Source: a virus
Strand: one strand, 5' to 3'
DNA length: 52,963 nucleotides
Virus record (IMG/VR): IMGVR_UViG_3300049028_000001
Under the pieces are notes generated by a model that was not told where the DNA came from, did not search any database, and worked only from the letters and a program-made list of their open reading frames with translations. The position numbers and the translations under genes are program-made. Shown here piece after piece: positions 1 through 52,963 of this stretch; position 1 is the stretch's first letter; every line of letters starts with the position of its first letter.

Positions 1-127
1 CATGAAGCAAATTCAGGATGTATCTGAGTTTCTTGAGCTACTTGCTTAACCTGCTGTAAAGCAGTTTTAGCTTCTTGTTCTACAGACTCAATCTCTTCTT
101 CGAGTTGGTCTGCTTTTTCAAAGTCCC
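1..127. repeat. 127-nt exact direct repeat with 52837..52963 (overlap of a circular assembly)
   Basis: Bases 1-127 (catgaagcaaattcagg...ttcaaagtccc) match the last 127 bases of the window by eye. The repeat lies inside an ORF that stays in frame across the junction. Confidence 0.9.
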
Positions 128-12657: not shown

Positions 12658-12982
12658 GCGACCCATATTAGAACTACCCAATTACACAAAACAGCCATCT
12701 AAAAAGACTCTCTTTGAAGAAGCACAGCGCCGGGATTTAATCGTCCGTAATATTGCTGCTAAGCTTACATATGGACCCGGGGATTGGGTAACACCGAATA
12801 AACCAGAGAGTGTCAATGAATATGGGGATCGCGTTAAGATTCTACGCATCTGTGATACCTATGGTAAGTTCGGTAAAGATGAAGTTTGGCCAGAGAGTGA
12901 CAATCCGATGATTGTCCATGCGTGGTCAGAAAAGCTTGATACTACATTCATGTGTACTGCTAATTTTCTAGTTAAGAAATGA
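12632..12982 (+). CDS. hypothetical protein
   Basis: 116-aa track ORF. Its stop overlaps the start of the amidotransferase gene (ATGA). Confidence 0.45.
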   Translation: MINILLPSKRPILELPNYTKQPSKKTLFEEAQRRDLIVRNIAAKLTYGPGDWVTPNKPESVNEYGDRVKILRICDTYGKFGKDEVWPESDNPMIVHAWSEKLDTTFMCTANFLVKK

Positions 12983-13629
12983 CAACTCTAGGATACTCTC
13001 CTTATAACGCTCCCTCTTTCAATAATCCTATCTATCCTTTTGATACCCTGTTTGATAATCATATTGATTTAAAGCACCAAGAAACCCTAGATAATGTAGA
13101 TGCTGTAGTGTTGTGGGGTGGTACTGATATTTGCAGTCAACTCTACAATGAACCCAAGCATCGGTTTAGTTACGGACCTAACTACCCTTCAACGAGGGAC
13201 ATCTTCGAGTGGAATATCCTACGAGAAGCTATTCGATTAAAGAAACCAATCATTGGGGTATGCCGAGGAGCACAATTAATTTGTGCTTTTGCTGGAGGTA
13301 AACTAGTTCAAGACTGTACTGGGCATGGTGGGGGTAGTCATAGTATTACAACTTCTGATGATAAGCATTTCTCTGTGACTAGTTCTCATCACCAAATGAT
13401 GTTTCCCTTCAAGGTTAAGTATGAGATGCTGGCTTGGAGTACCACAAATCTTAGTAGAGAATATAATGGTATCTCTCCAGAGGAGGAGATGCAGATTGAA
13501 AAGGAACCTGAAGTAGTTTACTTCCCAGAGATTAATGCCATGGCAATTCAATGTCATCCAGAATGGCATAAAGCAGATGATCCATTTAATAAGTGGATTC
13601 TTGAGAAGATTACGGAGATTCAATTCTAA
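12979..13629 (+). CDS. class I glutamine amidotransferase / peptidase C26 (gamma-glutamyl hydrolase-like)
   Basis: Nucleophile elbow GVCRGAQL and a His-Glu pair in IQCHPEW. Size is about 216 aa. Confidence 0.65.
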   Translation: MTTLGYSPYNAPSFNNPIYPFDTLFDNHIDLKHQETLDNVDAVVLWGGTDICSQLYNEPKHRFSYGPNYPSTRDIFEWNILREAIRLKKPIIGVCRGAQLICAFAGGKLVQDCTGHGGGSHSITTSDDKHFSVTSSHHQMMFPFKVKYEMLAWSTTNLSREYNGISPEEEMQIEKEPEVVYFPEINAMAIQCHPEWHKADDPFNKWILEKITEIQF

Positions 13630-13667
13630 GGCGGATTCCGCCTAATAACAGTATTTGAGGATAAAAG

Positions 13668-14423
13668 ATGAGACTAGGTAGTGATCCAGAAGTGTTTCTA
13701 CAAGATCAGAGTGGGAAACACATCTCAGTTATCGGAATGATTGGTGCAGATAAGTGGAATCCTAAGCAGGTACCTGATATGCCTGAGGGGTTTACACTAC
13801 AGGAGGATAACGTATCGTTGGAGTTTGGTATTCCTCCTGCTCGTGACGCGGAGGAGTTTGCTAACAATATCGAATTGGTATTGAAGGCGGGTCTATCAAA
13901 CGTTAACGGCCTTCAGTTTAGTAAGCTTAGCTGTACGATCTTTCCTGAGGATCAGTTAGCTCATCCTATGGCATCGGTATTCGGCTGTGAACCAGACTTC
14001 AATGCATGGACAGGTTTAGAGAATCCACGCCCAACACCACCACATAAGGGTATGCGTAGTGCTGGGGGGCATGTACACATTGAGACTAAGGAGGATCCTC
14101 GTGTGGTTGTGCAAAATTGTGATGTGCACCTCGGGCTTGCTAGCGTTTTACTTGATGATGGTATTGAACGGAAGAAGGTTGGTTATGGAGCGGCTGGAGC
14201 GTTTCGCCCTAAACCTTATGGCGTTGAGTATCGGACTCTTTCTAATTTCTGGATTTTTAGTCCTAAGTTTTCCAAATGGATTTGGCGAGCTACTGAACGT
14301 GCGTTAGGTAATCTTCGGACATTTAACAACACCGAATCCGAATATATCCAGAAAGCTATCAATACGGGTAATCGTCGGATTGCCTCTGAACTAATTGAAT
14401 ATTTCCAGGTACTGATGCCATGA
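13668..14423 (+). CDS. phage COOH-NH2 ligase (glutamine-synthetase-fold, phiEco32-type) candidate
   Basis: GSDPEVFL at the N-terminus, LEFGIPP, GCEPDFNAW, AGGHVHIE and GVEYRTLSNFW resemble the phage type-2 COOH-NH2 ligase family recalled from comparative-genomics literature. Confidence 0.5.
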   Translation: MRLGSDPEVFLQDQSGKHISVIGMIGADKWNPKQVPDMPEGFTLQEDNVSLEFGIPPARDAEEFANNIELVLKAGLSNVNGLQFSKLSCTIFPEDQLAHPMASVFGCEPDFNAWTGLENPRPTPPHKGMRSAGGHVHIETKEDPRVVVQNCDVHLGLASVLLDDGIERKKVGYGAAGAFRPKPYGVEYRTLSNFWIFSPKFSKWIWRATERALGNLRTFNNTESEYIQKAINTGNRRIASELIEYFQVLMP

Positions 14424-14878
14424 AGATTCCTAAGCCGATTCTTGGATCTGCTCTTAAAGCCTACTTTATGGAGCATGTGAAGCCTATTCCCCAAGATACT
14501 CCCGGCTTCTATAGAGTAACCAGACCTCTTCACGTATTTAAGAGTACCCATCAATATAGGGATGGTGCTTTCTGTATTACTAATTTGATGATTCCTAAAG
14601 GGGCTTTTATTTATGCTCCTGATATCTGTTTCGCGGCTGGGCATCAGCCTAATGAGTATCATCATCGTAAGATGCGTGCCTCGTCGGCCTCTGTTCATTC
14701 TAACTTTACGAAAAGGACAAAGGAGAGAGTGCAGGAGGCTTCCTCTTGTTATTCTCCCATCTTTAAATATAAAGAAGGAACTAAGGTAAAGCCACAGATG
14801 CCTTTCTCTCATGAACCACATACTTGTGATTATGGAATCCATTTCTTTCTAAACCTTTACGATGCTTATAATTATTAA
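14420..14878 (+). CDS. hypothetical protein inside the ligase cassette
   Basis: 152 aa. ATGA coupling upstream, and the next ATG lies 3 nt after its stop. The 208-aa antisense track ORF is R/S/L-rich and judged a shadow. Confidence 0.45.
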   Translation: MKIPKPILGSALKAYFMEHVKPIPQDTPGFYRVTRPLHVFKSTHQYRDGAFCITNLMIPKGAFIYAPDICFAAGHQPNEYHHRKMRASSASVHSNFTKRTKERVQEASSCYSPIFKYKEGTKVKPQMPFSHEPHTCDYGIHFFLNLYDAYNY

Positions 14879-14880
14879 TC

Positions 14881-15480
14881 ATGTTTGTAGACTCTAATAA
14901 CTGGGACGACTGTAAGAAGTACTTTGAAGGTACTTGGGTTAAATTCAAAGAGGAGGGTGATAATACCATTTGGTATATCAATGAAGTAACCCCAAAACAT
15001 CTCTTTGCTAAAAGTGTAGATGAAAAGGAAATTATCGGGGTTGATCTAGAGATAGGATATACTCTCGATTATGTAATCCCAAAGAAGACAACTTATCAAT
15101 TACATGAGAGTGCTGTTAATCTTTCCAGGATTCCTGCAAGGCAATGGAAGAAGGGAATGAATAAACAGAATACCTTATTTCAAGTACTGACTGGAGACGG
15201 TATTTGGTTACCAGCACCATTCCAACCTGATGTAATTAATGGGTTTGTAAATAAACCGGGATATTACACTCCCCATGATGCACTCCGAGAATTCAAGGCT
15301 AGTGAACATCTCCGAAGCGCAGCCCTGAATCCGAGAATGTCCATTGCTAGGAATGGTACAATCTTTGTTGATACTGTGCTTGTCGCTAGGTTTGACGGGG
15401 AACGTTTGATCACGAAGAGTCTGTTTGTTCCTGAAATTTCGGCAATGTTCCCAGAATGGAAGATTAAGACAGTAAAATGA
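14881..15480 (+). CDS. hypothetical protein inside the ligase cassette
   Basis: 199-aa track ORF. Its stop overlaps the next start (ATGA). Confidence 0.5.
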   Translation: MFVDSNNWDDCKKYFEGTWVKFKEEGDNTIWYINEVTPKHLFAKSVDEKEIIGVDLEIGYTLDYVIPKKTTYQLHESAVNLSRIPARQWKKGMNKQNTLFQVLTGDGIWLPAPFQPDVINGFVNKPGYYTPHDALREFKASEHLRSAALNPRMSIARNGTIFVDTVLVARFDGERLITKSLFVPEISAMFPEWKIKTVK

Positions 15481-16283
15481 GCATGGAAGCTAAACCCGTA
15501 ATTGATATCAAAACTCACTTTGGATTACCAGTAAATTTTAAACTAAATAAATTTACTCCCAAACAGTTTGTGTGTGGGTGTGAGTTTGAGATTGAAAGTA
15601 TTCTGAATTGGGAGAATCTGGGAGGATTTGTATCAGTAGAAGAGGATCATTCTTTACGAAATAATGGTAAAGAATTCAAGACTCCTCCTGTAGGTTTTGA
15701 GTTGGCACTTGAAACTTTTAGGATTCTTCACGACAATATTAAGTTAGGACCGAATCCCTTTAGTGAGCGCACTTCTATTCATGTGCATGTAAATGTCCGT
15801 GACCTTTCCTTAAAGGACGTTCGCAATCTAATTCTAACGTATGCTCTACTAGAACCCCTGTTCTTTGAGTTTGCAGGAGAAACTCGTAAAGGCTCAATCT
15901 TCTGTGTACCTCTGAGTTATACATATCTACCTAGTCTATACAAGCATCCAATTACGATGCTTCTTGACAAGTGGAAGAATAATAAGTACACAGCATTTAA
16001 TCTGTTGCCTATTACTTCTTTTGGTACTGTGGAGTTTCGTCACCTTTATGGTACTGGTGATGAGCAAGTTTTTACAACGTGGTTAACTGCAATCAAAGAA
16101 CTATATGACTACGTTGTGAATCATCCCGAATTAGAAGTAACAGAACTTCTAAAGGAGCCTATTGCAAAAGTAGCCTTGGAAATTATTCCTTCACTAGCAA
16201 AGTTATATTCTGTTAATCGGATTACAGAACTAACACAGGATTCTGTAGTTGATATCAAACTGTCCAAAGGCGGGCTTAAATAA
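15477..16283 (+). CDS. Amidoligase_2-type putative amidoligase
   Basis: CGCEFEIES, EEDHSLRNNGKEFKTPP, TSIHVHVNV and GTVEFRHLYGT fit the putative amidoligase enzyme family pattern. Confidence 0.5.
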   Translation: MSMEAKPVIDIKTHFGLPVNFKLNKFTPKQFVCGCEFEIESILNWENLGGFVSVEEDHSLRNNGKEFKTPPVGFELALETFRILHDNIKLGPNPFSERTSIHVHVNVRDLSLKDVRNLILTYALLEPLFFEFAGETRKGSIFCVPLSYTYLPSLYKHPITMLLDKWKNNKYTAFNLLPITSFGTVEFRHLYGTGDEQVFTTWLTAIKELYDYVVNHPELEVTELLKEPIAKVALEIIPSLAKLYSVNRITELTQDSVVDIKLSKGGLK

Positions 16284-17435
16284 ATGTGTGGTCTTGTTGG
16301 AATGATTTTAAATACCACCAATGGACCAGTGTTTTCTGATGTTACAGCATTTGAAGAACTACTGTACATTGATGCATTGCGTGGTGAAGATTCAACTGGT
16401 GTAGCTGCTCTCTATAATAATGGAGATATGCAGGTCATTAAAGATTCCTGTGATGCTAATTACTTTCGATCCACCAAGGAATTTACAGACTTTAAACGGG
16501 ATTTTATTAGTAAAGGCCGTGTAGTATTAGGTCATAATCGAAAGAAGACTGTAGGAAAGATTGACCCTACAACCGCACATCCTTTTCTTATTAACGATCG
16601 CTTTGCTTTTACACATAACGGGACACTACACAACCACAAGAAACTAGCAAATACAGAAGTAGACAGTGAAGCTCTTGGTATTCATCTGACTGAATGTGAA
16701 GGAAGCCTAGTTAAGCTAGAGAAAGCTTTAGCAGAAGTAGAAGGTGCCTTTGCTTGTGCTTGGATCGATCAACAGACAGAAAAGGTATTCCTGTTACGGA
16801 ATACGGAACGGCCCTTGTATCTAGCTAAGACTCAGATTGGCTATATCTATGCTTCTGAGCCGGCTATGATTACCTTGGTGGCATTGCGTAATCGAATAAA
16901 AATCGATTCCATTGATCCTGTGGATACGGATACTTTATATACCTTCTCTCTCCCTAAAATCTATGGAGTAGATCTAACAAAAGATAAGCTGGTATACACA
17001 CCAAAAAAAGCCAAGCCCACTACGTACCATGGCAGCACCAAAGTAGTGGGCATGCATTCTACAGTGAAGGCTGCGAATAACTTTCTCAACTCTGATGTTT
17101 ACGGTACTAGCAAGAATGCCTTTAAAAGATTTCGTAATAAGAATCTTGGGAAGGTTGTTCCCTTCTATGTAGAAGACTTCGTAGAGAAGAACTACCCACA
17201 AAACGATGGAGACTGGCTACTCTTTGGTAAATGTGATTCTCTAGAAGTAAATCATATGGTTTGTGGTGTAGTTAAAAACGCAACCATGTATGCTATTGAA
17301 GAAGATTACATGAACCATTTAGCATATGGTCAGATCTTGAATGTTGAATATGATGAGATTTCTAAGTTGGTTAAGATTTCAGTTGGATCAATAACACTAG
17401 CAAAACCCCATGAAGCTGCGCTTACTAAGCACTAA
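16284..17435 (+). CDS. class II (Ntn) glutamine amidotransferase with a C-terminal domain of unknown function
   Basis: N-terminal MCGLVG with the nucleophile Cys at position 2. RGEDSTGVA, GHNRKKT and FTHNGTL are typical of the GATase-2 fold. About 170 extra C-terminal residues are unassigned. Confidence 0.65.
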   Translation: MCGLVGMILNTTNGPVFSDVTAFEELLYIDALRGEDSTGVAALYNNGDMQVIKDSCDANYFRSTKEFTDFKRDFISKGRVVLGHNRKKTVGKIDPTTAHPFLINDRFAFTHNGTLHNHKKLANTEVDSEALGIHLTECEGSLVKLEKALAEVEGAFACAWIDQQTEKVFLLRNTERPLYLAKTQIGYIYASEPAMITLVALRNRIKIDSIDPVDTDTLYTFSLPKIYGVDLTKDKLVYTPKKAKPTTYHGSTKVVGMHSTVKAANNFLNSDVYGTSKNAFKRFRNKNLGKVVPFYVEDFVEKNYPQNDGDWLLFGKCDSLEVNHMVCGVVKNATMYAIEEDYMNHLAYGQILNVEYDEISKLVKISVGSITLAKPHEAALTKH

Positions 17436-18096
17436 ACTAAAGTCACAGTCTTTAAAGAGACTGGCACAGGGTCTATCAACAGCGCTGGGCTATAAGGTCT
17501 GGCGTAGTTCTAAGCCAAAGCCTAATCGAAAGCATCTATTGTATGGTGACCAAATCTGTAAGATTGAACAGTATAAATGGTTTAAGCAGGAAGCAATTCC
17601 TAGCCTTGAGTTCACATTATCACAGGGAGAAGCACAAGAATGGGCTAAAGTGGCACCTGTGGTATGTAGAAAACTTACCAGGGCATCAGAAGGCAAGGGA
17701 ATTGTTATCGCAGAGTCGCCAGAACAAGTGGTGGTGGCTCCTGTGTATACGAAATATCGCAAAAAGAAGAAGGAATACAGGGTTCATGTGTTCAAGGGCA
17801 CGATCGTGCATGTACTAGAAAAGCGGAAACGTAAAGGTGTGGACGTTACTGAAACGAAAGTACGTAACACGGCTAATGGCTACGTCTTCTGCTCTGAGAA
17901 TGTTGTGGAGCCTGAAGGATTACGGGAACTAGCTCTAGCCGCTTCTAAGGTAACTAAGTCAGATTTTAAAGGGGTAGATATCGGCTACAATGAAAAGAAG
18001 AATGAGCTGTTTGTTATCGAAGTTAACTCTGCTCCTGGTATTGAAGGTTCTAACGTAGATCGATATGTCCAGGTCATCAAAGCAAACCTCTTCTGA
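17410..18096 (+). CDS. ATP-grasp family ligase candidate
   Basis: 228 aa. A K-rich central region (YTKYRKKKKEYRVHVF) and a C-terminal FVIEVNSAPG(I) resemble ATP-grasp core strands. It is adjacent to the amidoligases. Confidence 0.5.
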   Translation: MKLRLLSTKLKSQSLKRLAQGLSTALGYKVWRSSKPKPNRKHLLYGDQICKIEQYKWFKQEAIPSLEFTLSQGEAQEWAKVAPVVCRKLTRASEGKGIVIAESPEQVVVAPVYTKYRKKKKEYRVHVFKGTIVHVLEKRKRKGVDVTETKVRNTANGYVFCSENVVEPEGLRELALAASKVTKSDFKGVDIGYNEKKNELFVIEVNSAPGIEGSNVDRYVQVIKANLF

Positions 18097-22977: not shown

Positions 22978-23242
22978 ATATGAATGTCACATCACTACTT
23001 TTACTAGTAGTGCAGAAGTAGCTACAGAAGTGGCTAAAGAACTCCACTGGAAAACGTCAGAGATTGCACGAGATCCTGTACTAGGTAATGATACATATTT
23101 CTATTTAACTAGTCATAGTGATTCATATGATCGTATGTGGGAACGTATGGTAGAAGCAGTAAATTTACTAGAACTTAAGGGCTGTAAAGTAGTTCGAGAA
23201 AAAATTGAGCATATCGTCTATGACCGACGTTATAACCTCTGA
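22967..23242 (+). CDS. hypothetical protein
   Basis: In-frame ATG at 22967 within the track ORF from 22946. MQNKYECHITTF... Confidence 0.45.
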   Translation: MQNKYECHITTFTSSAEVATEVAKELHWKTSEIARDPVLGNDTYFYLTSHSDSYDRMWERMVEAVNLLELKGCKVVREKIEHIVYDRRYNL

Positions 23243-24359
23243 CTGGGAAGTAACAACACACAATATAGGCTCTCCATTTGATCCACGTAACAAAGCAGTT
23301 TGCTTAGGTATTAAAGAGGACAACAATGATACTTACTGTCTTAACTTTCTTGAGTATCAGAATTTAACTGCATTGAATACCAAGCTACAAGATAAACTAC
23401 TGGTATTCTTCAATGCTAAGTTCGACGTGCATTGGTATCGAAGGCTAGGTCTATCAAGTGTGCTGGAAAGTAAGATATGGTGTTGTCAGGTAGCTGAGTT
23501 TGTATTAGAGGGACAAACTAAACCATATCCAAGCCTTGAGAATACTGCTGTTAAGTACGGCTTAGGACATAAGATCGATGTAATCAAAGAAGAGTATTGG
23601 AGTAAGGGAATCAATACTGATGAGATTCCTACCCAAGTTCTTCATGAGTACTGTATCCAAGACGTAAATCTTACCTACCAGATTTATCTCAAACAACTAG
23701 AGCAATTTCAAAAGAGTCCTAAGCTCTTTGTACTATTCAAATTGATGTGTCAGGATCTGCTGGTCTTGGAGGAAATGGAATGGAATGGCTTGATATGTGA
23801 TGAGGAGTTGTGTAATCAGCGAGCGGAGGAATTAGATAAAGAAATACAACAAATCAGAGAACAACTATCTAACGTATATCCTGACATTCCCATTAACTTT
23901 GGTAGTAACGATCAGCTTAGTGCTTTCCTATACGGTGGTAAAATCCCTAGAAAAGTTAGCAAGCATGTAGGATTTTATAAGAACGGTAAACCTAAATATA
24001 AACTCGAAGATGAGCCTTGGGTACTACCACGATTAGTAGAGCCCATCAAGGGTTCAGAGATGCAAAAAGAAGGTGTGTATGCGACAGATGAAGCTACTTT
24101 ACGAAAGCTTAAAGGTCCGGCTGCAACTAAGTTTGTTGGTCCTTTACTTAGGTTGGCTGAACTTGAGAAACTATGTTCGACGTACTATCGAGGACTTCCT
24201 AAAATTATTGAAGAAATGAATTGGTCTAAAGGAGAGATCCACGGTAACTTCAATCAAGTAGTTGCAGCTACAGGGCGTCTGAGTAGCACAAAACCTAATC
24301 AACAGAACTTCAGTAGTGATTGTTTAGACGTCTTCATTTCGAGGTATAAGGATGGATGA
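23205..24359 (+). CDS. family A DNA polymerase, N-terminal part (3'-5' exonuclease plus thumb; ends just before motif A)
   Basis: Exo motifs SDWEV, FFNAKFDVHW and HEYCIQDVNLTY. Pre-motif-A TGRLSSTKPNQQNF. The ORF stops at ...FISRYKDG-TGA. The likely start is the ATG at 23220. Confidence 0.8.
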   Translation: MSISSMTDVITSDWEVTTHNIGSPFDPRNKAVCLGIKEDNNDTYCLNFLEYQNLTALNTKLQDKLLVFFNAKFDVHWYRRLGLSSVLESKIWCCQVAEFVLEGQTKPYPSLENTAVKYGLGHKIDVIKEEYWSKGINTDEIPTQVLHEYCIQDVNLTYQIYLKQLEQFQKSPKLFVLFKLMCQDLLVLEEMEWNGLICDEELCNQRAEELDKEIQQIREQLSNVYPDIPINFGSNDQLSAFLYGGKIPRKVSKHVGFYKNGKPKYKLEDEPWVLPRLVEPIKGSEMQKEGVYATDEATLRKLKGPAATKFVGPLLRLAELEKLCSTYYRGLPKIIEEMNWSKGEIHGNFNQVVAATGRLSSTKPNQQNFSSDCLDVFISRYKDG

Positions 24360-24507
24360 AATTGACGACTATATCTTTGCTTTAATGGAATTGGCTGCTT
24401 TACTTCAAACAGTAGGTCCCAGCAAGCTATTAAACGATTTCAAGCAACAATATCCTAAAGAGTATCAACAGCTTGTTTTAGGAGTCTTGGAGGAATTACC
24501 CAAGTGA
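24352..24507 (+). CDS. mini-ORF a inside the polymerase gap (51 aa)
   Basis: MDEIDDYIFALMELAALLQTVGPSKLLNDFKQQYPKEYQQLVLGVLEELPK. Its ATG overlaps the end of the Pol-N ORF and its stop overlaps the GTG of mini-ORF b. Confidence 0.3.
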   Translation: MDEIDDYIFALMELAALLQTVGPSKLLNDFKQQYPKEYQQLVLGVLEELPK

Positions 24508-24656
24508 CATTTGAAGAGTGGTATAAAACTTTAGGAACGGCGGGTAAGAATCAAAATCCCTTTGGAGATTGGTTTGTTGCTATGCAAGAGGCTTATAAAA
24601 AAGGATTTGAAGAGGGTAAGAGAGAAAGTGAGGGCGCCGATGTTAGTGCAAGCTGA
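24504..24656 (+). CDS. mini-ORF b inside the polymerase gap (50 aa)
   Basis: VTFEEWYKTLGTAGKNQNPFGDWFVAMQEAYKKGFEEGKRESEGADVSAS. GTGA coupling to ORF a. Confidence 0.3.
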   Translation: MTFEEWYKTLGTAGKNQNPFGDWFVAMQEAYKKGFEEGKRESEGADVSAS

Positions 24657-25379
24657 CGCGGCGCAACTTTAGAGTGGCGTACTGCGGTAGAACTGAGTAA
24701 TGATGAGGTAGGTCTAGCTGAGATATTAGAGAAACAGGATACGCACAGCCTCAACCAAGTTGCGTTCCAGTTACCATCTAGACTCATTGCTAAGATCTAT
24801 TTGTTTCGTACTATCTTCCGTGGTTCCGGTTGGAGCTTTGCTAATGATCCAAAATTTACTCACGTATCTAGTGATCCTAAATACTGGGATAAGGTAAACG
24901 AGAAATTCTATGCCAAGTACCATGGCTTAGATAAACAACATAAAGTGTGGGCTGACTTAGTAGTCCAAGGAAAGCCTATTGTAGGCCCTTTAGGGCGATT
25001 TTGGCCCATTGATATGGGTACGGACTACCGAGGTAATTTAAAGATCCCATGGACCGTTCTAAGCAATTACCCAGTACAGGGGACTGGGGCCGACGTGATG
25101 ACTATTGCACGTATATCCTTCTTCAATCGTATGAAGAAGTTGGGATTGTTTCAAAAGGGCGTGTTGCTAGTCTCATCAGTGCACGACAGTATTGTAGTGG
25201 ATGCCCCCGAAGAGCTCATTCAGGACATTACGAACCTTTTCCATCAGGTGTTCGATGCGTTGCAGATGAATATCTACAAGGTGTTCGGATATGAATGGCG
25301 AGTACCACTCGCTTGTGAGGTAAAGTATGGACCTAATATGAAATCAATGACAAAGATTGAGAGGACAGATGACATATAA
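24640..25379 (+). CDS. family A DNA polymerase, C-terminal part (motifs A, B, C); reading frame broken after codon 10
   Basis: GAGGG ribosome-binding site 5 nt before the ATG at 24640, giving MLVQADAAQL then TAG (24670..24672). The frame starting at 24672 continues EWRTAVELS...DTHSLNQVAF..RLIAKIYLFRTIFRG (motif B)...VSSVHDSIVVD (motif C). The track calls only 24801..25379. Confidence 0.7.
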
Positions 25380-27607: not shown

Positions 27608-27797
27608 AGTATACCAAACAATTAAAACAGAAAATGGTACAGTTGAATTTAAAGGTGAGTTATCTCCTGAAGAGGCTGACTACGTAATTACAATGGGCCT
27701 TAATTATCTTCTTCAGCATGGAGCATTACCATTCAAGGCAGTGTCTGATCAAGATGAATTAATGAACTATGTTCCTGGTAACTTTAACGAACAATGA
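27597..27797 (+). CDS. hypothetical protein
   Basis: 66-aa track ORF with coupled overlaps at both ends. Confidence 0.4.
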   Translation: MVIKVYQTIKTENGTVEFKGELSPEEADYVITMGLNYLLQHGALPFKAVSDQDELMNYVPGNFNEQ

Positions 27798-28555
27798 GAC
27801 ATTTGGTACTACCCGATACTCAGATACGACCAGGAGATAATGTAGATTTTCTAGAAGCTATTGGTAACTACATTGTTAAGAAGCAGCCAGAGGTAATTGT
27901 TTGTCTAGGCGACTTCGCAGATATGTCTAGCCTCAGTTCATATGATGTAGGAAAGCGAAGCTTCGAGGGTAAACGATATGTAAAGGATATTGAAGCCGCT
28001 CGTGATGCTATGGGTACCCTCTTAGTTCCTATATGGGAATTTAATAACAGGGCAAGAGAAAATAAGCATCGACAATATAAACCACGAATGGTGATGTGTA
28101 TCGGTAATCACGAACAGCGTATTCACAAAGCTGTAGACAATGACCCCAAGCTAGAGGGTGTGCTCAGTATCAAGGACTTAAGGTATGAAAGTTATGGCTG
28201 GGAAGTATATCCATTTCTTGAAGTCGTGGTTATTGACGGTGTTGCTTACAGTCATTATTTTACCAGTGGTTCTCTTGGTAAGCCTTGTTCTAGTGCTGCT
28301 GTTATGCTTAACAAAAAGCATATGTCTTGTATTGCAGGTCATCAGCAAGGACTACAGATTGCAATGGGCCATCGTGCAGATGGTACCCCTATCACCTCAG
28401 TTATTGCTGGATCTTGTTACGAGCATGATGAAGATTATCTGGGACCACAAGGAAATAAACACTGGCGAGGTGTGCTCGTACTACACGAAGTAAAAGATGG
28501 GGCATTTGATATTATGCCAGTTAGCTTAGCTTATATTAAGAATAAATATACATAA
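27794..28555 (+). CDS. calcineurin-like metallophosphoesterase
   Basis: LVLPDTQ, CLGDFADM (GDxxD), CIGNHEQR (GNHE) and later His residues (AGHQQG, GSCYEHD). Confidence 0.65.
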   Translation: MRHLVLPDTQIRPGDNVDFLEAIGNYIVKKQPEVIVCLGDFADMSSLSSYDVGKRSFEGKRYVKDIEAARDAMGTLLVPIWEFNNRARENKHRQYKPRMVMCIGNHEQRIHKAVDNDPKLEGVLSIKDLRYESYGWEVYPFLEVVVIDGVAYSHYFTSGSLGKPCSSAAVMLNKKHMSCIAGHQQGLQIAMGHRADGTPITSVIAGSCYEHDEDYLGPQGNKHWRGVLVLHEVKDGAFDIMPVSLAYIKNKYT

Positions 28556-30085: not shown

Positions 30086-30677
30086 TTGGGAGTATCTATA
30101 TGACAATCACGATGGTCATGGTTTTGGAACCCTGTCTGTAAAAGATCAGAAGCTAATCAACTACCTAGCTACTCATAATCACTGGACTCCTTTTGCTCAC
30201 GCCTTTATGTCGTTCCGAATAAAGGCTCCTATCTTTGTTGCTCGTCAGTTGGTTAAGCATCAGGTAGGCTTGGTATGGAATGAGGTATCTCGAAGATATG
30301 TTGACGACGAGCCTGAATTCTGGTTTCCTATGGAATGGCGGGGAAAACCAGTAAATGCTAAACAGGGTAGTTCAGGTGATGCCCCTCCATATGCATACTC
30401 ACTAGGTATGGAAAAAGTTCTAATTCCTGTATTAGAACAATATAATTGGATGATTGAAACAGGAGTAGCACCCGAACAAGCTCGTATGGTACTACCACTT
30501 AACTGTTTAACGGAATGGATCTGGAGTGGTAGTTTAGTTGCCTTTGCTCGGGTATGTAAACTACGCCTCGATCCGCACGCACAACTTGAATGCCAAGAAG
30601 TAGCAAAGAAGATCTATGACTTGGTTCCAGATGATTTCGAGCACTCATGGAGTGCACTAATGGGAGAAACAAAATAA
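29988..30677 (+). CDS. thyX: ThyX-like flavin-dependent thymidylate synthase homolog (atypical signature)
   Basis: TAAGGAG ribosome-binding site 10 nt before the ATG at 29988. [45 protein letters not shown] and [11 protein letters not shown] align with T. maritima ThyX. The canonical RHR is KHQ here. Confidence 0.7.
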   Translation: [229 protein letters not shown]

Positions 30678-31362
30678 CTGATTTTAATACAGATTTACAA
30701 ACTTACGTATACAAGTCTCGATATGCTAAATGGCTAGAATCGGAAGGTCGTCGAGAGAGTTGGAAGGAGACGGTAACGCGATACTGTGACTTCTTCCAGA
30801 AACGATTCCCTGAGACTTTTCCATATAATGATATTTGGAATGCTATCTACAATCTAGATGTTGTCCCTTCAATGCGGGCTCTGATGACAGCAGGCCCTGC
30901 CTTAGAGCGAGATAATATTGCTGGATATAATTGTAGTTACATTCCGATTATTGATATCCGCTGTTTCGATGAAATCATGTATATCCTGATGTGCGGTACA
31001 GGAGTAGGTTATAGTGTAGAAAGGCAATATGTCAGCAGGCTACCGGACGTGGCAGAGACTTTACATGAAACAGGATCTACAATTCACGTTGCAGATTCTA
31101 AAACAGGGTGGGCCGCAGCATTTCGACAACTCATCTCTCTACTATATGCGGGGCAGATTCCTAAATGGGACACCAGCAAGATCCGACCCGCTGGAGCTAG
31201 ACTTAAAACGTTTGGAGGAAGAGCTTCAGGACCTGGACCCCTGGAAGAGTTATTTACCTTCACGGTTTCCTTATTTAAAAAAGCTGCTGGACGGAAACTT
31301 AATTCAGTCGAAGTTTCTGATCTTGTCTGTAAGACGGCAGAGGTTGTGGTTGTGGGAGGAGT
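30647..31362 (+). CDS. nrdJ: class II ribonucleotide reductase, exon 1
   Basis: VPSMRALMTAGP...GYNCSY...CGTGVGYSV...TFGGRASGPGPL...AEVVVVGGV. The ORF then runs into intron sequence and stops at 31381. Confidence 0.7.
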
Positions 31363-32243
31363 AGAGCCTAAGAAATACTAAGGCTCTCGATTTGAACTGA
31401 AAGGAGAAATCATGGAAAGCTTTAGCGAGTACACAGTTCGTAAACAAAAATTTCGTTATTTAGATTTCAATAAGATTGACAATAAAGACTTAGCCTATGT
31501 ATGTGGTTATCTAGCAGGTGATGGGGCTTTCCTAGCAAATGCTGGTTATCCAAAGTTGTCTTTAAGCTCTGTTGATAAGCATATCATTGAAGCTTTTAAA
31601 GCTTATCTTTGTCCAGATACCTCTATTCAATATGTAGGTAAACATAGTACAGAGAGAGTTAAAGCAGTTAATGATATTTGGAGTATTAATCTTTCTATGA
31701 AAGTGTCTCAGGCATTTAAGCCTTTTGGTATTTTCTGTTATAAGAAAGACCGACGAGTAATAGGCATTCCTAACCATCTCTTTATTCATTACTTCCATGG
31801 GGTAATGGATGCAGACGGCTTTATTGGAATAACTGTTAGACGAGACTGTCGTTTACCTAGAGTGCGGATTTTTATCACTCATGAGAGTGAAAAGTTTCTA
31901 GTAGATTTACAAAATAAACTAGATGAACTTTTTGAGATTCCCTCTACTATTAGACAACATGGTACAGGCTGTTATCGTCTTCAATTACAACATACAGAAA
32001 AGAATAAACTGTTTTTAGATATGTTATATAGTGATACTCCTTTTGTATATTCTAGACAACGAGAAAATGTTTACAGAAATCGTCTAGCTCCAGACGTTGG
32101 GTTAATTGCTGGAAAGCGAAAGCCAATCAGCAGCCAAGCAGTAAGTATACTTGCTGAAGGTTCAGAGACTACCTGAGAAGTATAATCTTCTTAATAACAG
32201 GAAAGAACGCCCAAAACAGAAATGTTAAGATATAGTCCAACAG
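31363..32243 (+). mobile_element. group I intron 1 in RNR gene (carries LAGLIDADG ORF)
   Basis: The 5' exon ends in T (..ggagt) and the intron ends in G (..caacag). The conserved J8/7-P7 element aagatatagtcc lies at 32227..32238. Splicing restores GGV-RRSALICLSNLTDERM in frame. Confidence 0.6.
31412..32176 (+). CDS. LAGLIDADG homing endonuclease (double-motif)
   Basis: LAYVCGYLAGDGAF and YFHGVMDADGFIG are two LAGLIDADG motifs about 100 aa apart. GGAG ribosome-binding site before the ATG. Confidence 0.8.
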   Translation: MESFSEYTVRKQKFRYLDFNKIDNKDLAYVCGYLAGDGAFLANAGYPKLSLSSVDKHIIEAFKAYLCPDTSIQYVGKHSTERVKAVNDIWSINLSMKVSQAFKPFGIFCYKKDRRVIGIPNHLFIHYFHGVMDADGFIGITVRRDCRLPRVRIFITHESEKFLVDLQNKLDELFEIPSTIRQHGTGCYRLQLQHTEKNKLFLDMLYSDTPFVYSRQRENVYRNRLAPDVGLIAGKRKPISSQAVSILAEGSETT

Positions 32244-32556
32244 TAGACGGAGTGCTCTTATCTGTCTTAGTAATCTTACGGACGAGAGGATGCGTAACTA
32301 CAAAAATGGGCAGTGGTGGGTAGATGAGAAACAACGAGCTTTAGCTAACATCTCTGCTGCGTATACTGAGAAGCCAGATATCGGTATTTTCATGAAAGAG
32401 TGGCAAGCACTATATGAATCAAAATCAGGAGAGCGTGGAATCTTTAATCGAGTTTCTGCACGTAAACAGGCAGAAGCTTGTGGACGTAGAGACACAAATC
32501 ATGATTTCGGCACGAACCCTTGCGGGGAAATCATACTCCGACCTTTCGGCTATTGT
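32244..32556 (+). CDS. nrdJ: class II ribonucleotide reductase, exon 2
   Basis: (V)RRSALICLSNLTDERMRNYKNGQWW...SGERGIFNR...TNPCGEIILRPFGYC, which includes the active-site NPCGEI loop. Confidence 0.7.
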
Positions 32557-33239
32557 TAATTAATAGCAACTTCATACAGTAATGTATGTCGAAACCGTGT
32601 GAATTCAGGGGAAGACCAGACCGGTTAATCCTGACCCAAGTTAAATCGGGGGCAACGACTAGAGCGAAAGCTCGTACACTCAAGTGAGTGGAAGCGCACG
32701 GCCCCGTCCACATAGAAGACGGGTGAAGATATAGTCTGAGCTATATAGGAATATATAGGAGGGAATTTGAGAAATAGACAAGGTTATTTTGTTAGTGATA
32801 ATGGTATGCGTGAGTGTACTGGTTGTGGAATTATTTTTCCTCAGACTAGTAAAATGACCTTGTGCAAATCATGTAATAGTTCAAGAGTAAAAAGTATGAC
32901 TCCAGAGTGGAAAATGCACCAGCGCGCTAAACAGCGTGCTAAATTCTGTGGTATGGAGTTCGATATAGAAGTTGAAGATATTATAATCCCAGATACCTGC
33001 CCTATTTTGGGCATTTCTTTAAATATGAATTCAGGTAGGTCTGGTGCTTATAAAAACTCTCCTTCTTTAGATCGGATTAATAATTCTCTTGGATATATTA
33101 AAGGTAATATTTGGGTGATCTCTCAACAAGCAAATGCCATGAAAGGCGCAGCAAGTGTGGAAGATCTACAGAAATTTGCTGATTGGATTAATTCTCAATA
33201 TCCCCGGCAGGAAGTAACGACTCCTGTTGAACATAACTG
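32557..33239 (+). mobile_element. group I intron 2 in RNR gene (carries HNH ORF)
   Basis: The 5' exon ends in T (tgt) and the intron ends in G (..aactg). gaagatatagtct lies at 32725..32737 after a G+C-rich structured core (32570..32720). Splicing gives FGYC-NLSEVIV in frame. Confidence 0.6.
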
Positions 33240-33240
33240 A
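32767..33240 (+). CDS. HNH homing endonuclease (intron-encoded)
   Basis: N-terminal CxxC..CxxC, then SPSLDRINNSLGYIKGNIWVISQQANAMKG (HNH-3 type). AGGAGGG ribosome-binding site. The stop codon spans the 3' splice site. Confidence 0.75.
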   Translation: MRNRQGYFVSDNGMRECTGCGIIFPQTSKMTLCKSCNSSRVKSMTPEWKMHQRAKQRAKFCGMEFDIEVEDIIIPDTCPILGISLNMNSGRSGAYKNSPSLDRINNSLGYIKGNIWVISQQANAMKGAASVEDLQKFADWINSQYPRQEVTTPVEHN

Positions 33241-34142
33241 ATCTTAGCGAAGTTATTGTCAGAGCAAGCGACTCTTTTGATGACCTTAAGCGAAAGGTGC
33301 AACTCGCTACTATTATCGGTACCTTCCAATCAACGCTCACAGATTTCCGGTACATTCGCAAACAATGGAAAGTAAATGCTGAAGAGGAACGACTACTAGG
33401 GGTATCTCTTACAGGAATTATGGACCATGTACTATTAAGTGGTTCATCTTGTGATGCAAGATATAACAATGTTCTTGAAGAAACACTACAGCAATTAAAG
33501 AATGAAACAATCCAGACAAACAAGGAATGGGCAGCTAGGCTGGGTATTCCTGTTAGTGCTAGTATTACTACCATTAAGCCCTCTGGTACTGTTAGCCAGC
33601 TTGTGGATTCTGCTAGTGGTATTCATCCTCGGCATAATCAATACTATGTACGTACAGTGCGAGCGGATGTTAAAGACCCTCTTGCGACGTTCCTAAAAGA
33701 CCAAGGAGTTCCTTGTGAACCAGATGTGGTTAACAATTCTAATTATGTGTTCAGCTTTCCAATTAGGGCGCCTAGTGGCTGCATTACCCGGAATGATCGA
33801 ACAGCGATCGAAGCTCTTGACCATTACCTTATTTTTAAGCGTTACTGGTGTGAGCATAATCCTAGCATTACTGTTTATGTTAAAGAGCATGAGTGGTTAG
33901 AAGTAGGTGCTTGGGTCTATCAACACTTAGATGAGATTGGTGGAGTAAGCTTCCTACCACACAGTGAGCATGTATATAAACAAGCTCCGTATCAGGATAT
34001 CACCCAGGAGCAGTATGAAGCTTTAGCTGCTAGCTTCCCAAAGATTAACTGGTCTGCTTTTGATAACTACGAGAAAGAAGATAACACAACAGCAAGTCAC
34101 GAGCTAGCATGTGTTGGCGCGAGTTGTGAGTTGCCCTTCTAA
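33240..34142 (+). CDS. nrdJ: class II ribonucleotide reductase, exon 3
   Basis: NLSEVIVRASDS...LGVSLTGIMD...TTIKPSGTVSQL...GIHP. The C-terminal Cys pair is ACVGASCELPF. Exon lengths 716+313+903 = 1932 nt = 644 codons. Confidence 0.7.
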   Translation, partial: NLSEVIVRASDSFDDLKRKVQLATIIGTFQSTLTDFRYIRKQWKVNAEEERLLGVSLTGIMDHVLLSGSSCDARYNNVLEETLQQLKNETIQTNKEWAARLGIPVSASITTIKPSGTVSQLVDSASGIHPRHNQYYVRTVRADVKDPLATFLKDQGVPCEPDVVNNSNYVFSFPIRAPSGCITRNDRTAIEALDHYLIFKRYWCEHNPSITVYVKEHEWLEVGAWVYQHLDEIGGVSFLPHSEHVYKQAPYQDITQEQYEALAASFPKINWSAFDNYEKEDNTTASHELACVGASCELPF

Positions 34143-52475: not shown

Positions 52476-52963
52476 TTATTTCCTTGCTTTGATTGCCTTA
52501 AGATCAGCAATATACTGCTCTTTGGTAATTAACGGCTTTCCGTTCTTATCTCTTTCCGAAAGAAGAGTTTTCATCACAGTCTCTTCTTGTGGAGTAAGTG
52601 CATAATCCTCTTTAGACGCACGTGAAGTAGTACGGGTACTGCCAGGGCTCTCTACTGCCCCAGGACGATCTCGATTAGGATTATGAAACTTATTCGGGAA
52701 TTCTTTACGTACCTCAGCTTCTACCTTCTTTAGTACTTCAGAGGGTGCTAGACCTAGTTTAGCAAACTCTAATCCCTTAAAGTCAGCAAAGGTCTTCATG
52801 TGAGGTTGGGTAGCATACCAATCATTCTTTTCTACCCATGAAGCAAATTCAGGATGTATCTGAGTTTCTTGAGCTACTTGCTTAACCTGCTGTAAAGCAG
52901 TTTTAGCTTCTTGTTCTACAGACTCAATCTCTTCTTCGAGTTGGTCTGCTTTTTCAAAGTCCC
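52476..52963 (-). CDS. putative scaffolding/assembly protein, C-terminal part (same gene as 1..461)
   Basis: The frame of track ORF 52476..52799 stays open upstream to the window end. ...HPEFASWVEKNDWYATQPHMKTFADFKG joins the 1..461 segment through the 127-nt overlap. Confidence 0.5.
   Translation of the reverse strand, partial: DFEKADQLEEEIESVEQEAKTALQQVKQVAQETQIHPEFASWVEKNDWYATQPHMKTFADFKGLEFAKLGLAPSEVLKKVEAEVRKEFPNKFHNPNRDRPGAVESPGSTRTTSRASKEDYALTPQEETVMKTLLSERDKNGKPLITKEQYIADLKAIKARK
52837..52963. repeat. second copy of the 127-nt terminal overlap
   Basis: Identical to 1..127 by eye. Confidence 0.9.

Follow-up and report, generated by a model that had tools for sequence, protein, structure and literature searches.

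The locus described here raises the question of how a family A DNA polymerase can be made from a gene that is broken at two places, namely between two separate coding sequences (CDSs) and again, by only 2 nucleotides (nt), inside the catalytic motif A. It lies in IMG/VR virus record IMGVR_UViG_3300049028_000001; the whole stretch of DNA analysed (52,963 nt) is called the window, and loci of related phages are denoted by L numbers. The answer that we favour, with a probability of roughly 0.65, is that the enzyme would consist of two subunits (PolN and PolC), that the 2-nt gap in PolC would be crossed by recoding, and that this gap would be part of a family of mobile cassettes. PolN (23220..24359; this and all other features of the locus are on the + strand) encodes the 3'-5' exonuclease and the N-terminal part of the polymerase. 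Its called product of 379 amino acids (aa) matches Pfam PF01612 and PF00476, carries TGRLSSTKPNQQNF and has the C-terminus ...TGRLSSTKPNQQNFSSDCLDVFISRYKDG, i.e. it ends in FISRYKDG followed by a TGA stop at 24357..24359. An earlier reading made from the letters alone (the sequence-only reading) had described this end correctly, as the open reading frame (ORF) map and the sequence confirm, but had started the gene at TTG 23205, which merely opens the ORF; ATG 23220, picked by gene callers, is the more likely start. The ORF map and sequence likewise bear out the two coupled mini-ORFs of 51 and 50 aa that it placed behind PolN (orfA and orfB), and its position for the break, just before motif A, agrees with an alignment to Taq and Klenow, in which the split falls 5 residues ahead of the catalytic Asp.

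The polymerase had been said to resume at ATG 24640. The start signals are indeed present, namely a Shine-Dalgarno (SD) sequence GAGGG at 24630..24634 (duplex energy -8.3 kcal/mol), the ATG and the residues MLVQAD, but the frame stops after 10 codons at an in-frame TAG (24670..24672). These 10 codons (24640..24669, MLVQADAAQL), referred to as the mini-exon, include the codon for the catalytic Asp of motif A (GAC, 24655..24657). The main part of PolC (24672..25379; 235 codons, EWRTAVELSNDE...VHDSIV...TDDI plus stop) begins EWRTAVELS..., is in the +2/-1 frame relative to ATG 24640, contains the remainder of motif A together with motifs B and C, and also matches PF00476. The two parts are separated by a 2-nt coding gap, TA (24670..24671), which the sequence-only reading overlooked. 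The gap sits between Leu10 and Glu11 of motif A and, together with G24672, makes an in-frame UAG directly after the CUU codon of Leu10 (24667..24669), the proposed take-off codon. When Leu10 (CTT) is joined to GAG 24672, skipping TA, the sequence DAAQLEWR is obtained and matches DYSQIELR of Taq and Klenow ungapped. The repaired protein aligns with both enzymes without any gap (E = 5e-20), with VHDSIV matching VHDELV, and the locus thus has the exonuclease domain and the motifs of a family A DNA polymerase. Because of this gap, standard decoding cannot yield PolC: the resumed frame becomes open at 24657 and lacks any ATG, GTG or TTG codon as far as 24801. In every assembly the gene callers report only a C-terminal PolC fragment of 192 aa, whose start is the TTG corresponding to 24801; the catalytic Asp and part of motif B are missing from this product. 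Every pipeline thus truncates PolC in this abundant aquatic phage group, which makes functional calls and polymerase-based phylogenies incorrect at this site.

A scan of IMG/VR identified 535 confirmed relatives, 80 of which were kept for locus examination. PolN and PolC are split at the same site in 80/80 of these loci, with a gap ranging from 0 nt (L015) to ~1140 nt. Cultured relatives found by tblastn also have two polymerase CDSs, i.e. Alcaligenes phage vB_Af_QDWS535 (51% identity), MW202697 and the Methylophilales phages MEP401/402; PolN and PolC directly adjoin each other in the Alcaligenes phage (TAATG), whose PolC begins MLVSIDAGQIEWR. The polymerase gene is unsplit in HTVC033P and CRP-738, which are more distant relatives. 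Since the same split is present in all 80 loci whatever the length of the gap, it points to a two-subunit enzyme rather than to an intron or an intein. The proposal of the sequence-only reading that the enzyme is assembled from two polypeptides is thus supported by the distribution of the split in these loci and in the cultured relatives.

Other interruptions of the polymerase were seen in some relatives. In ICP2 (L273, Vibrio phage ICP2_2013_A_Haiti, 2596..2720), the split lies ~20 residues earlier, after ...PNLQNISN, and consists of an in-frame TAA followed by AAGGA and an ATG 9 nt later; because ICP2 is cultured, it is a possible experimental model for a two-subunit enzyme. In L274 (3847..4547) and L090 (1246..2029), PolC is split again after about residue 147-150 by a 700-780 nt insertion with an HNH endonuclease, which is absent from the window; in L274 ~13 codons are duplicated on both sides of this second split, and the polymerase is in three pieces. 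A further insertion hot spot is located after PolC residue 56 (L039 2768..3501; L040; L207 8946..9657), where insertions of ~720 nt contain an HNH ORF of 172-177 aa and the flanking exons are in the same frame.

The TA of the window belongs to a set of 14 insert sequences (12 groups) of 1, 2, 4, 6, 7, 8 or 10 nt, found in >25 contigs and all falling within the same 4 codons of motif A. Insert boundaries were set by protein alignment, and the statistics given below were computed on related sequences. With inserts in brackets, those following the Leu codon are CTT[T]GAG (L038, L043, L103 and L146), CTT[TA]GAG (the window, L025 and L090), CTT[TAGCTT]GAG (L157), CTT[TAGCCC]GAA (L019), CTT[TAGACCC]GAA (L041) and CTT[TAGGCTG]GAA (L207). 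The others are CAG[TAGCGG]CTA (L028), GAA[ATACGAC]TGG (L004, L095, L202 and L274), GAG[CATCGGG]TGG (L099), GAG[TAGCTGAC]TGG (L208), GAA[TAGCTACGTA]TGG (L042), GAA[TAGCTACGAT]TGG (L077), CGA[TTGT]GTG (L006) and AAA[A]GCT (MW202697). In all uninterrupted relatives the D-x4-E-W-R spacing is invariant and is the same as in Taq and Klenow. Under identical pattern constraints, 9 interrupted and 33 uninterrupted PolC starts were counted in IMG/VR (~21% interrupted). A DNA pattern with a variable gap had low specificity, 8/17 viral matches and, among the matches listed for metagenomes, 114/120 being unrelated chance matches.

Several features of the interrupted loci are consistent with translation across the gap. 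Pairwise comparison of the mini-exons of 20 interrupted loci gave 639 synonymous versus 341 nonsynonymous codon differences in the ATG frame, whereas the other two frames gave 128:804 and 3:854. Asp6 is invariant, and Ser8 alternates between TCG and AGT. The codon pattern indicates that the mini-exon is under purifying selection in the ATG frame and hence translated. The take-off codons are typically CUU or GAR, and in 9/12 insert groups a stop codon follows immediately after the last aligned codon (chance expectation, 3/64; p = 2e-10). The Leu codon at take-off is CTT in 6/6 after-Leu insert types versus 8/64 uninterrupted genes (p = 2e-5). The triplet 5' of the resume codon, at which the tRNA would land, is identical to the take-off codon at 17/27 positions across nine independent types (p = 3e-5), with the first position identical in 8/9. 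The match is perfect in L157 (CUU UAG CUU GAG), which has the classic layout of a stop-hop, and the landing triplet of L207 is CUG. In addition, a strong SD sequence precedes the PolC ATG in 21/21 interrupted loci (mean duplex energy, -12.1 kcal/mol), whereas in 46 uninterrupted loci, most of which lack such a site and depend on an overlap of stop and start codons, the mean is -3.1 kcal/mol (p = 5e-11).

The gaps also appear to be mobile. Interrupted and uninterrupted genes are interleaved in sequence space: PolC of L043 (T insert) is 94% identical to that of the uninterrupted L027, PolC of L077 (10-nt insert) is 88% identical to that of the uninterrupted L018, and a near-identical 10-nt insert is found in two different subclades. 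When L043 is compared with L027 and L030, or L077 with L018, almost identical flanks enclose a sharply bounded patch whose divergence is mostly synonymous, and which is composed of a block with the SD, the mini-exon in synonymously recoded form, the gap and a further 10-30 nt. In L274, the closest relative of the window (PolN 93% and PolC 91% identical), a PolC start that looks ancestral is coupled to orfB (TAATG) without an SD and breaks off at CAG TT|; behind it come a gene for a 169-aa HNH endonuclease (L274 2888..3397), a strong SD sequence, a second recoded mini-exon and the 7-nt gap ATACGAC before TGG. The HNH gene is inserted exactly at CAG TT|, the 5' end of PolC being duplicated, and the same layout is present in L004 and L006. 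In the window, the homology of orfB to L274 stops at ~24623 and high identity picks up again at TGGCG, so that the segment 24624..24671 (SD, ATG, recoded 10-codon mini-exon and 2-nt gap) may be a minimal cassette without endonuclease; its boundaries are assigned by analogy with the patches of L043 and L077. The TA of the window is located at the exact insertion point of the L274-type endonuclease cassette. Nucleotide identity plotted by sliding window gave no information on the window and distant interrupted relatives, since all of these sequences have the first 75 nt conserved.

We propose the following course of events. PolN, orfA, orfB and PolC would be co-transcribed, and a ribosome starting at ATG 24640 would decode MLVQADAAQL and pause when the A site contains UAG and the peptidyl-tRNA-Leu is on CUU. 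The peptidyl-tRNA would then re-pair 2 nt downstream on UUA (24669..24671), which amounts to a +2 shift or a minimal hop, and decoding would restart at GAG 24672 to give ...DAAQLEWR... with the junction peptide MLVQADAAQLEWR. A tRNA with a UAG anticodon could pair with UUA through U.G, U-A and A-U, and one with a GAG anticodon at 2/3 positions. PolN and PolC would associate non-covalently, perhaps together with the orfA product. The take-off site is one ribosome footprint (27-30 nt) downstream of the strong SD and ATG, so that the hop may be driven by collision with the ribosome that initiates next. The SD, the recoded mini-exon and the gap would form a small cassette spread by recombination, often with HNH homing endonucleases. 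An insertion in the target of the endonuclease would make the genome resistant, and recoding would make the insertion tolerable in an invariant catalytic motif. By analogy with T4 mobA/gene 60, we infer that the gaps may protect the motif A DNA target from cleavage: they could act as resistance alleles because the coding sequence of the target is invariant and synonymous change is insufficient to escape. The full form of this idea is that natural, diversified gaps of 1-10 nt in motif A, including a natural stop-hop at CUU UAG CUU, are skipped by peptidyl-tRNA re-pairing, with collision as a possible driver, and serve as resistance alleles against homing endonucleases, spread as cassettes of SD, mini-exon and gap. 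We put it forward tentatively, at somewhat less than even odds.

Several observations weigh against recoding by a +2 shift and against the immunity function suggested for the gaps. The recoding claim is drawn from sequence comparison, and +2 shifts are rare. Complete re-pairing from CUU to UUA needs a Leu tRNA with a UAG anticodon, and neither a tRNA nor a suppressor tRNA was found in the window. Several insert types, GAA[ATACGAC]TGG among them, could also be read by a +1 shift with the addition of 2-3 residues. Within 15 nt upstream of the shift site in the window there is no SD sequence, unlike in prfB. A possible hairpin with CUU and UAG at its apex (24657..24686, -12.2 kcal/mol) is no better than those of shuffled sequences (z = -0.36), and the difference in hairpin between interrupted and uninterrupted loci is weak (p = 0.035; p = 0.007 on non-independent sequences). 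The values for L025 and L208 are z = -2.2 and -2.8, respectively. The case for a hairpin specific to interrupted loci is at most a weak one, and the GAYGCN...GTGGCGT stem also forms in uninterrupted genes. As for immunity, the gap between PolN and PolC of the window holds no endonuclease, and L020 and L048 have HNH genes in this gap with motif A uninterrupted, so that the idea cannot hold for every endonuclease family.

Whether the break is real, and whether it leaves a functional gene, are the points on which two rival explanations turn. A 2-nt indel adjoining a short T run is a plausible type of sequencing or assembly artefact. An exact-protein lookup of orfA, however, returned 12 contigs, and the six loci retrieved (four from Logan SRA assemblies and two from Joint Genome Institute metagenomes), which come from different runs and two pipelines, share ...CAACTTTAGAGTGGCG... 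at the break with 0 mismatches to the window over <=1000 nt, the break region reading ...GACGCGGCGCAACTTTAGAGTGGCGTAC... in all six. Identity in six independent assemblies means that the frame break is not an error. The same TA insert recurs in L025 and L090, whose PolC sequences are merely 61-64% identical to that of the window, and the probability of an artefact is accordingly negligible. It is also improbable that the interruption is disabling, i.e. that PolC is a pseudogene or gives a truncated product without motif A and that the phage uses another polymerase, even though gene callers annotate only the C-terminal fragment and standard decoding gives nothing else. The product from TTG 24801 would itself be without the catalytic Asp, whereas none of the 235 downstream codons is disrupted and this part is 91% identical to L274, the mini-exon appears to be under purifying selection in the interrupted loci, and ~20% of relatives have gaps, always at this site and with non-random features. 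The first 127 nt of the window (1..127) are identical to the last 127 nt (52837..52963); this is the assembly overlap of a circular or terminally redundant genome, and the window is therefore a complete genome, with a unique length of ~52.8 kb (52,836 bp) and 41% G+C. For the same phage, Logan contigs have a length of 52,866 bp, and several samples yielded it as a complete assembly of ~52.9 kb. A tblastn search of the window with PolN and PolC found one copy only, and Pfam scans of 20 of its larger ORFs found no further polymerase domain. At the nucleotide level, blastn of the region against 50,697 phage records gave no match, the relatives being detected at the protein level only.

The remaining explanations accept the break and differ in how it is overcome. 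One continuous polymerase would result if the PolN/PolC gap were removed from the RNA or the protein, be it by editing, by an intein or by a group I or group II intron. Group I introns are common in phage DNA polymerase genes, and the split polymerase has already been published for MEP401-type phages, whose authors suggested an intron (PMC10580990). The genome itself has two group I introns elsewhere (32043..32250, 58 bits; 32547..32758, 84 bits), and their detection by Rfam indicates that the method works on this genome. For 24100..24900, Rfam gave no match even at E = 10, in agreement with the sequence-only reading, which had seen no group I intron signature. It had seen no intein either, and rightly, because PolN terminates at a TGA, and orfA, orfB and PolC each have their own start and do not share a frame. 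L015 and L001, in which the gap is 0 nt or stop and start codons overlap, are split identically, orfA represents a conserved protein family, and inserts of 1-10 nt are too small for a self-splicing intron. We therefore consider removal of the gap very improbable, although more probable than an artefact. The earlier suggestion that the PolN/PolC gap is an unrecognised intervening element holds to the extent that this gap is a hot spot for HNH genes in relatives; as an intron or intein it is unsupported. No homing endonuclease had been seen in the gap of the window and none was found there, whereas relatives do have them.

Recoding by a route other than a +2 shift is unlikely but is the strongest of the rivals. 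A -1 shift, or addition of a U by RNA polymerase in the CUUU run, would give ...DAAQLLEWR with an extra Leu and the junction peptide MLVQADAAQLLEWR; two +1 slips (CUU to UUU to UUA) over AGA would be another route, or relatives may simply translate their inserts, adding 1-3 residues to the motif A loop. Such routes would fit the insert lengths, most of which are 1 mod 3 (1, 4, 7 and 10) as expected for a simple +1 shift that reads the insert. They would also fit the triplet before TGG in L004, L077 and L208, which encodes Asp, a possible substitute for Glu, and the CUU UGA G of L038, L043, L103 and L146, a +1 site of the prfB type. Three types with in-frame stops (L157, L019 and L028), however, are beyond rescue by any frameshift, and the motif A spacing is invariant in uninterrupted relatives. 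In the window, tRNA-Leu could not pair with ACU after a -1 slip from CUU, and three consecutive U are fewer than known transcriptional slippage requires. Two further candidates were rejected: termination followed by reinitiation would yield a product without Asp6, no start codon being available in the resumed frame before 24801, and reassignment of TAG does not apply, since the frame changes and other ORFs are intact under genetic code 11.

The gap between PolN and PolC is occupied by orfA (24352..24507; 51 aa), whose ATG overlaps the PolN stop, and orfB (24504..24656; 50 aa), whose GTG start overlaps the orfA stop and whose 3' end overlaps the ribosome-binding site and start codon of PolC. 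Nothing stood out in a promoter and terminator search of the gap. The orfA family (~60-aa proteins between PolN and PolC) is present in the gap of 27 loci with the core pattern LEYND.LV.FAS....YG...VL.DF...YP..F, and a second family, probably related to it, occupies the gap of 10 more loci. In the protein database the orfA family comprises 58 clusters, 0 of which have a Pfam domain, and neither orfA nor orfB matched Pfam or PHROGs. AlphaFold predicts a three-helix bundle for orfA (predicted local distance difference test score, 93), and Foldseek searches with this model returned only uncharacterised phage homologues, with PDB matches at E > 4. orfB is fast-evolving, and its sole detected homologue is in L274 (37% identity). 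A family A polymerase split within the palm domain, with a conserved companion predicted to have three helices, is of interest for enzymology, and a role of the companion in assembly is testable. In relatives, the gap holds HNH homing endonucleases of at least four families, namely a phrog_374 type (L004, L006, L202 and L274, with remnants in L095 and L099), a phrog_3322 type (L019, with a remnant in L028), Pfam HNH_3 (L020, L042 and L202) and HNH_3 with AP2 (L048).

Elsewhere in the window, a class II (B12-dependent) ribonucleotide reductase gene is apparently in pieces (30647..34142, + strand): an ORF for its N-terminal part (30647..31381) is followed by an ORF for a LAGLIDADG endonuclease (31412..32176), the two group I introns at 32043..32250 and 32547..32758 lie in this region, and an ORF at 32767..33240 encodes a protein with 42% identity to the HNH of the phrog_3322 type in the L019 polymerase gap. 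A gene for a calcineurin-like phosphoesterase is found near the polymerase, inside the PolN/PolC gap in L018 (2772..3314) and downstream of it in the window (27794..28555), as well as downstream of the polymerase in the Alcaligenes phage. A cluster of glutamine amidotransferase, COOH-NH2 ligase/amidoligase and ATP-grasp (RimK-like) genes (12979..18096, + strand) resembles the auxiliary module of phiEco32-like and MEP401-type phages.

Among known systems, the MEP401-type phages of OM43 (Yang et al. 2023, PMC10580990) have the same polymerase family and the same split site, with PolN (exonuclease and N-terminal polymerase), a small ORF and PolC, which in MEP402 starts MILNADAKALEW. Motif A is uninterrupted in MEP401/402, no frame interruption was reported for them (PMC10580990), and the window is ~40% identical. 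The introns and inteins in the polymerases of phages SPO1, Bastille and phiL7 (via PMC10580990) are similar in that the interruptions lie near conserved motifs and involve homing endonucleases; here, in contrast, each piece is an ORF of its own, and signatures of a ribozyme or an intein are absent. In the nrdA gene of Aeh1, split by MobE, an endonuclease insertion likewise divides an essential enzyme into two polypeptides that assemble, and in L274 and L004 the endonuclease also has duplicated target codons and a newly gained start codon at its flanks. The split in the window differs from that of nrdA in having no evident C- or N-terminal extension tails and in having a conserved small gene in the gap.

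As regards recoding, no report on this polymerase family was found in the literature. The prfB gene for release factor 2 uses a programmed +1 frameshift at CUU UGA C with an internal SD sequence ~3 nt upstream. The window shares with it a shift-prone CUU in the P site with a stop codon after it, and L038, L043, L103 and L146 carry the exact CUU UGA needing +1, but without the internal SD; the window would need +2 at CUU UAG, has no internal SD and shows no evident autoregulatory logic. In synthetic stop-hops (Weiss et al. 1987), the peptidyl-tRNA re-pairs a few nt downstream, an arrangement that L157 reproduces. Re-pairing a few nt downstream over a slow-to-decode codon has likewise been considered for the terminase of Streptomyces phage Hau3, a candidate short bypass at a rare UUA codon that appears to be regulatory (PMC10732093). 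Natural short-distance bypassing is otherwise almost undocumented; according to the review of Atkins (2016), it has 'long been presumed', and no natural in-frame stop-hop was known. The 14 inserts in 12 groups, with matched uninterrupted controls and near-isogenic pairs, thus provide a ready comparative series for the study of take-off, landing and the role of the stop codon.

Only one known system combines gene fission, an endonuclease and a coding gap, namely that of T4 gene 60 and its topoisomerase homologues. The gene 39/mobA/gene 60 bypass cassette was described by Bonocora et al. (2011), as cited by Manning & Atkins (bioRxiv 10.1101/2022.08.31.505936), where the insert is stated to be thought to block self-cleavage by MobA. 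As in T4, an essential replication gene is split in two, apparently by insertion of a homing endonuclease, a non-coding insert lies soon after the start of the second ORF, and a stop or rare codon follows the take-off codon (CUU UAG in the window; 9/12 groups). The landing triplet would also match the take-off tRNA, fully or in part (in the window from CUU to the overlapping UUA, at 2 or 3/3 positions depending on the anticodon), the insert travels with a diverged 'homR'-like patch, and the endonuclease is often lost with the gap retained: upstream of the gap it is absent from the window and present in L274, L004, L006, L019, L042 and L202. The differences are that the host gene encodes a family A DNA polymerase instead of a topoisomerase, and that the gaps are 1-10 nt (2 nt in the window) instead of 50 nt and lie 10-13 instead of 46 codons after the start, which makes a long nascent-peptide signal impossible. 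Here, moreover, many gap sequences and several HNH families are found at one site, and a strong SD upstream of the ORF is an invariant companion. Bypassing has been demonstrated for gene 60, whereas here it is proposed from comparative data. If the proposal is true, this would be a second, independent case of the mobA/gene 60 logic and would suggest that recoding is a general escape of essential invariant motifs from homing endonucleases. As there is no sequence homology to the T4 cassette, the relationship is one of analogy and not of membership, and what is new here is the occurrence of far shorter and diverse gaps in a different essential gene.

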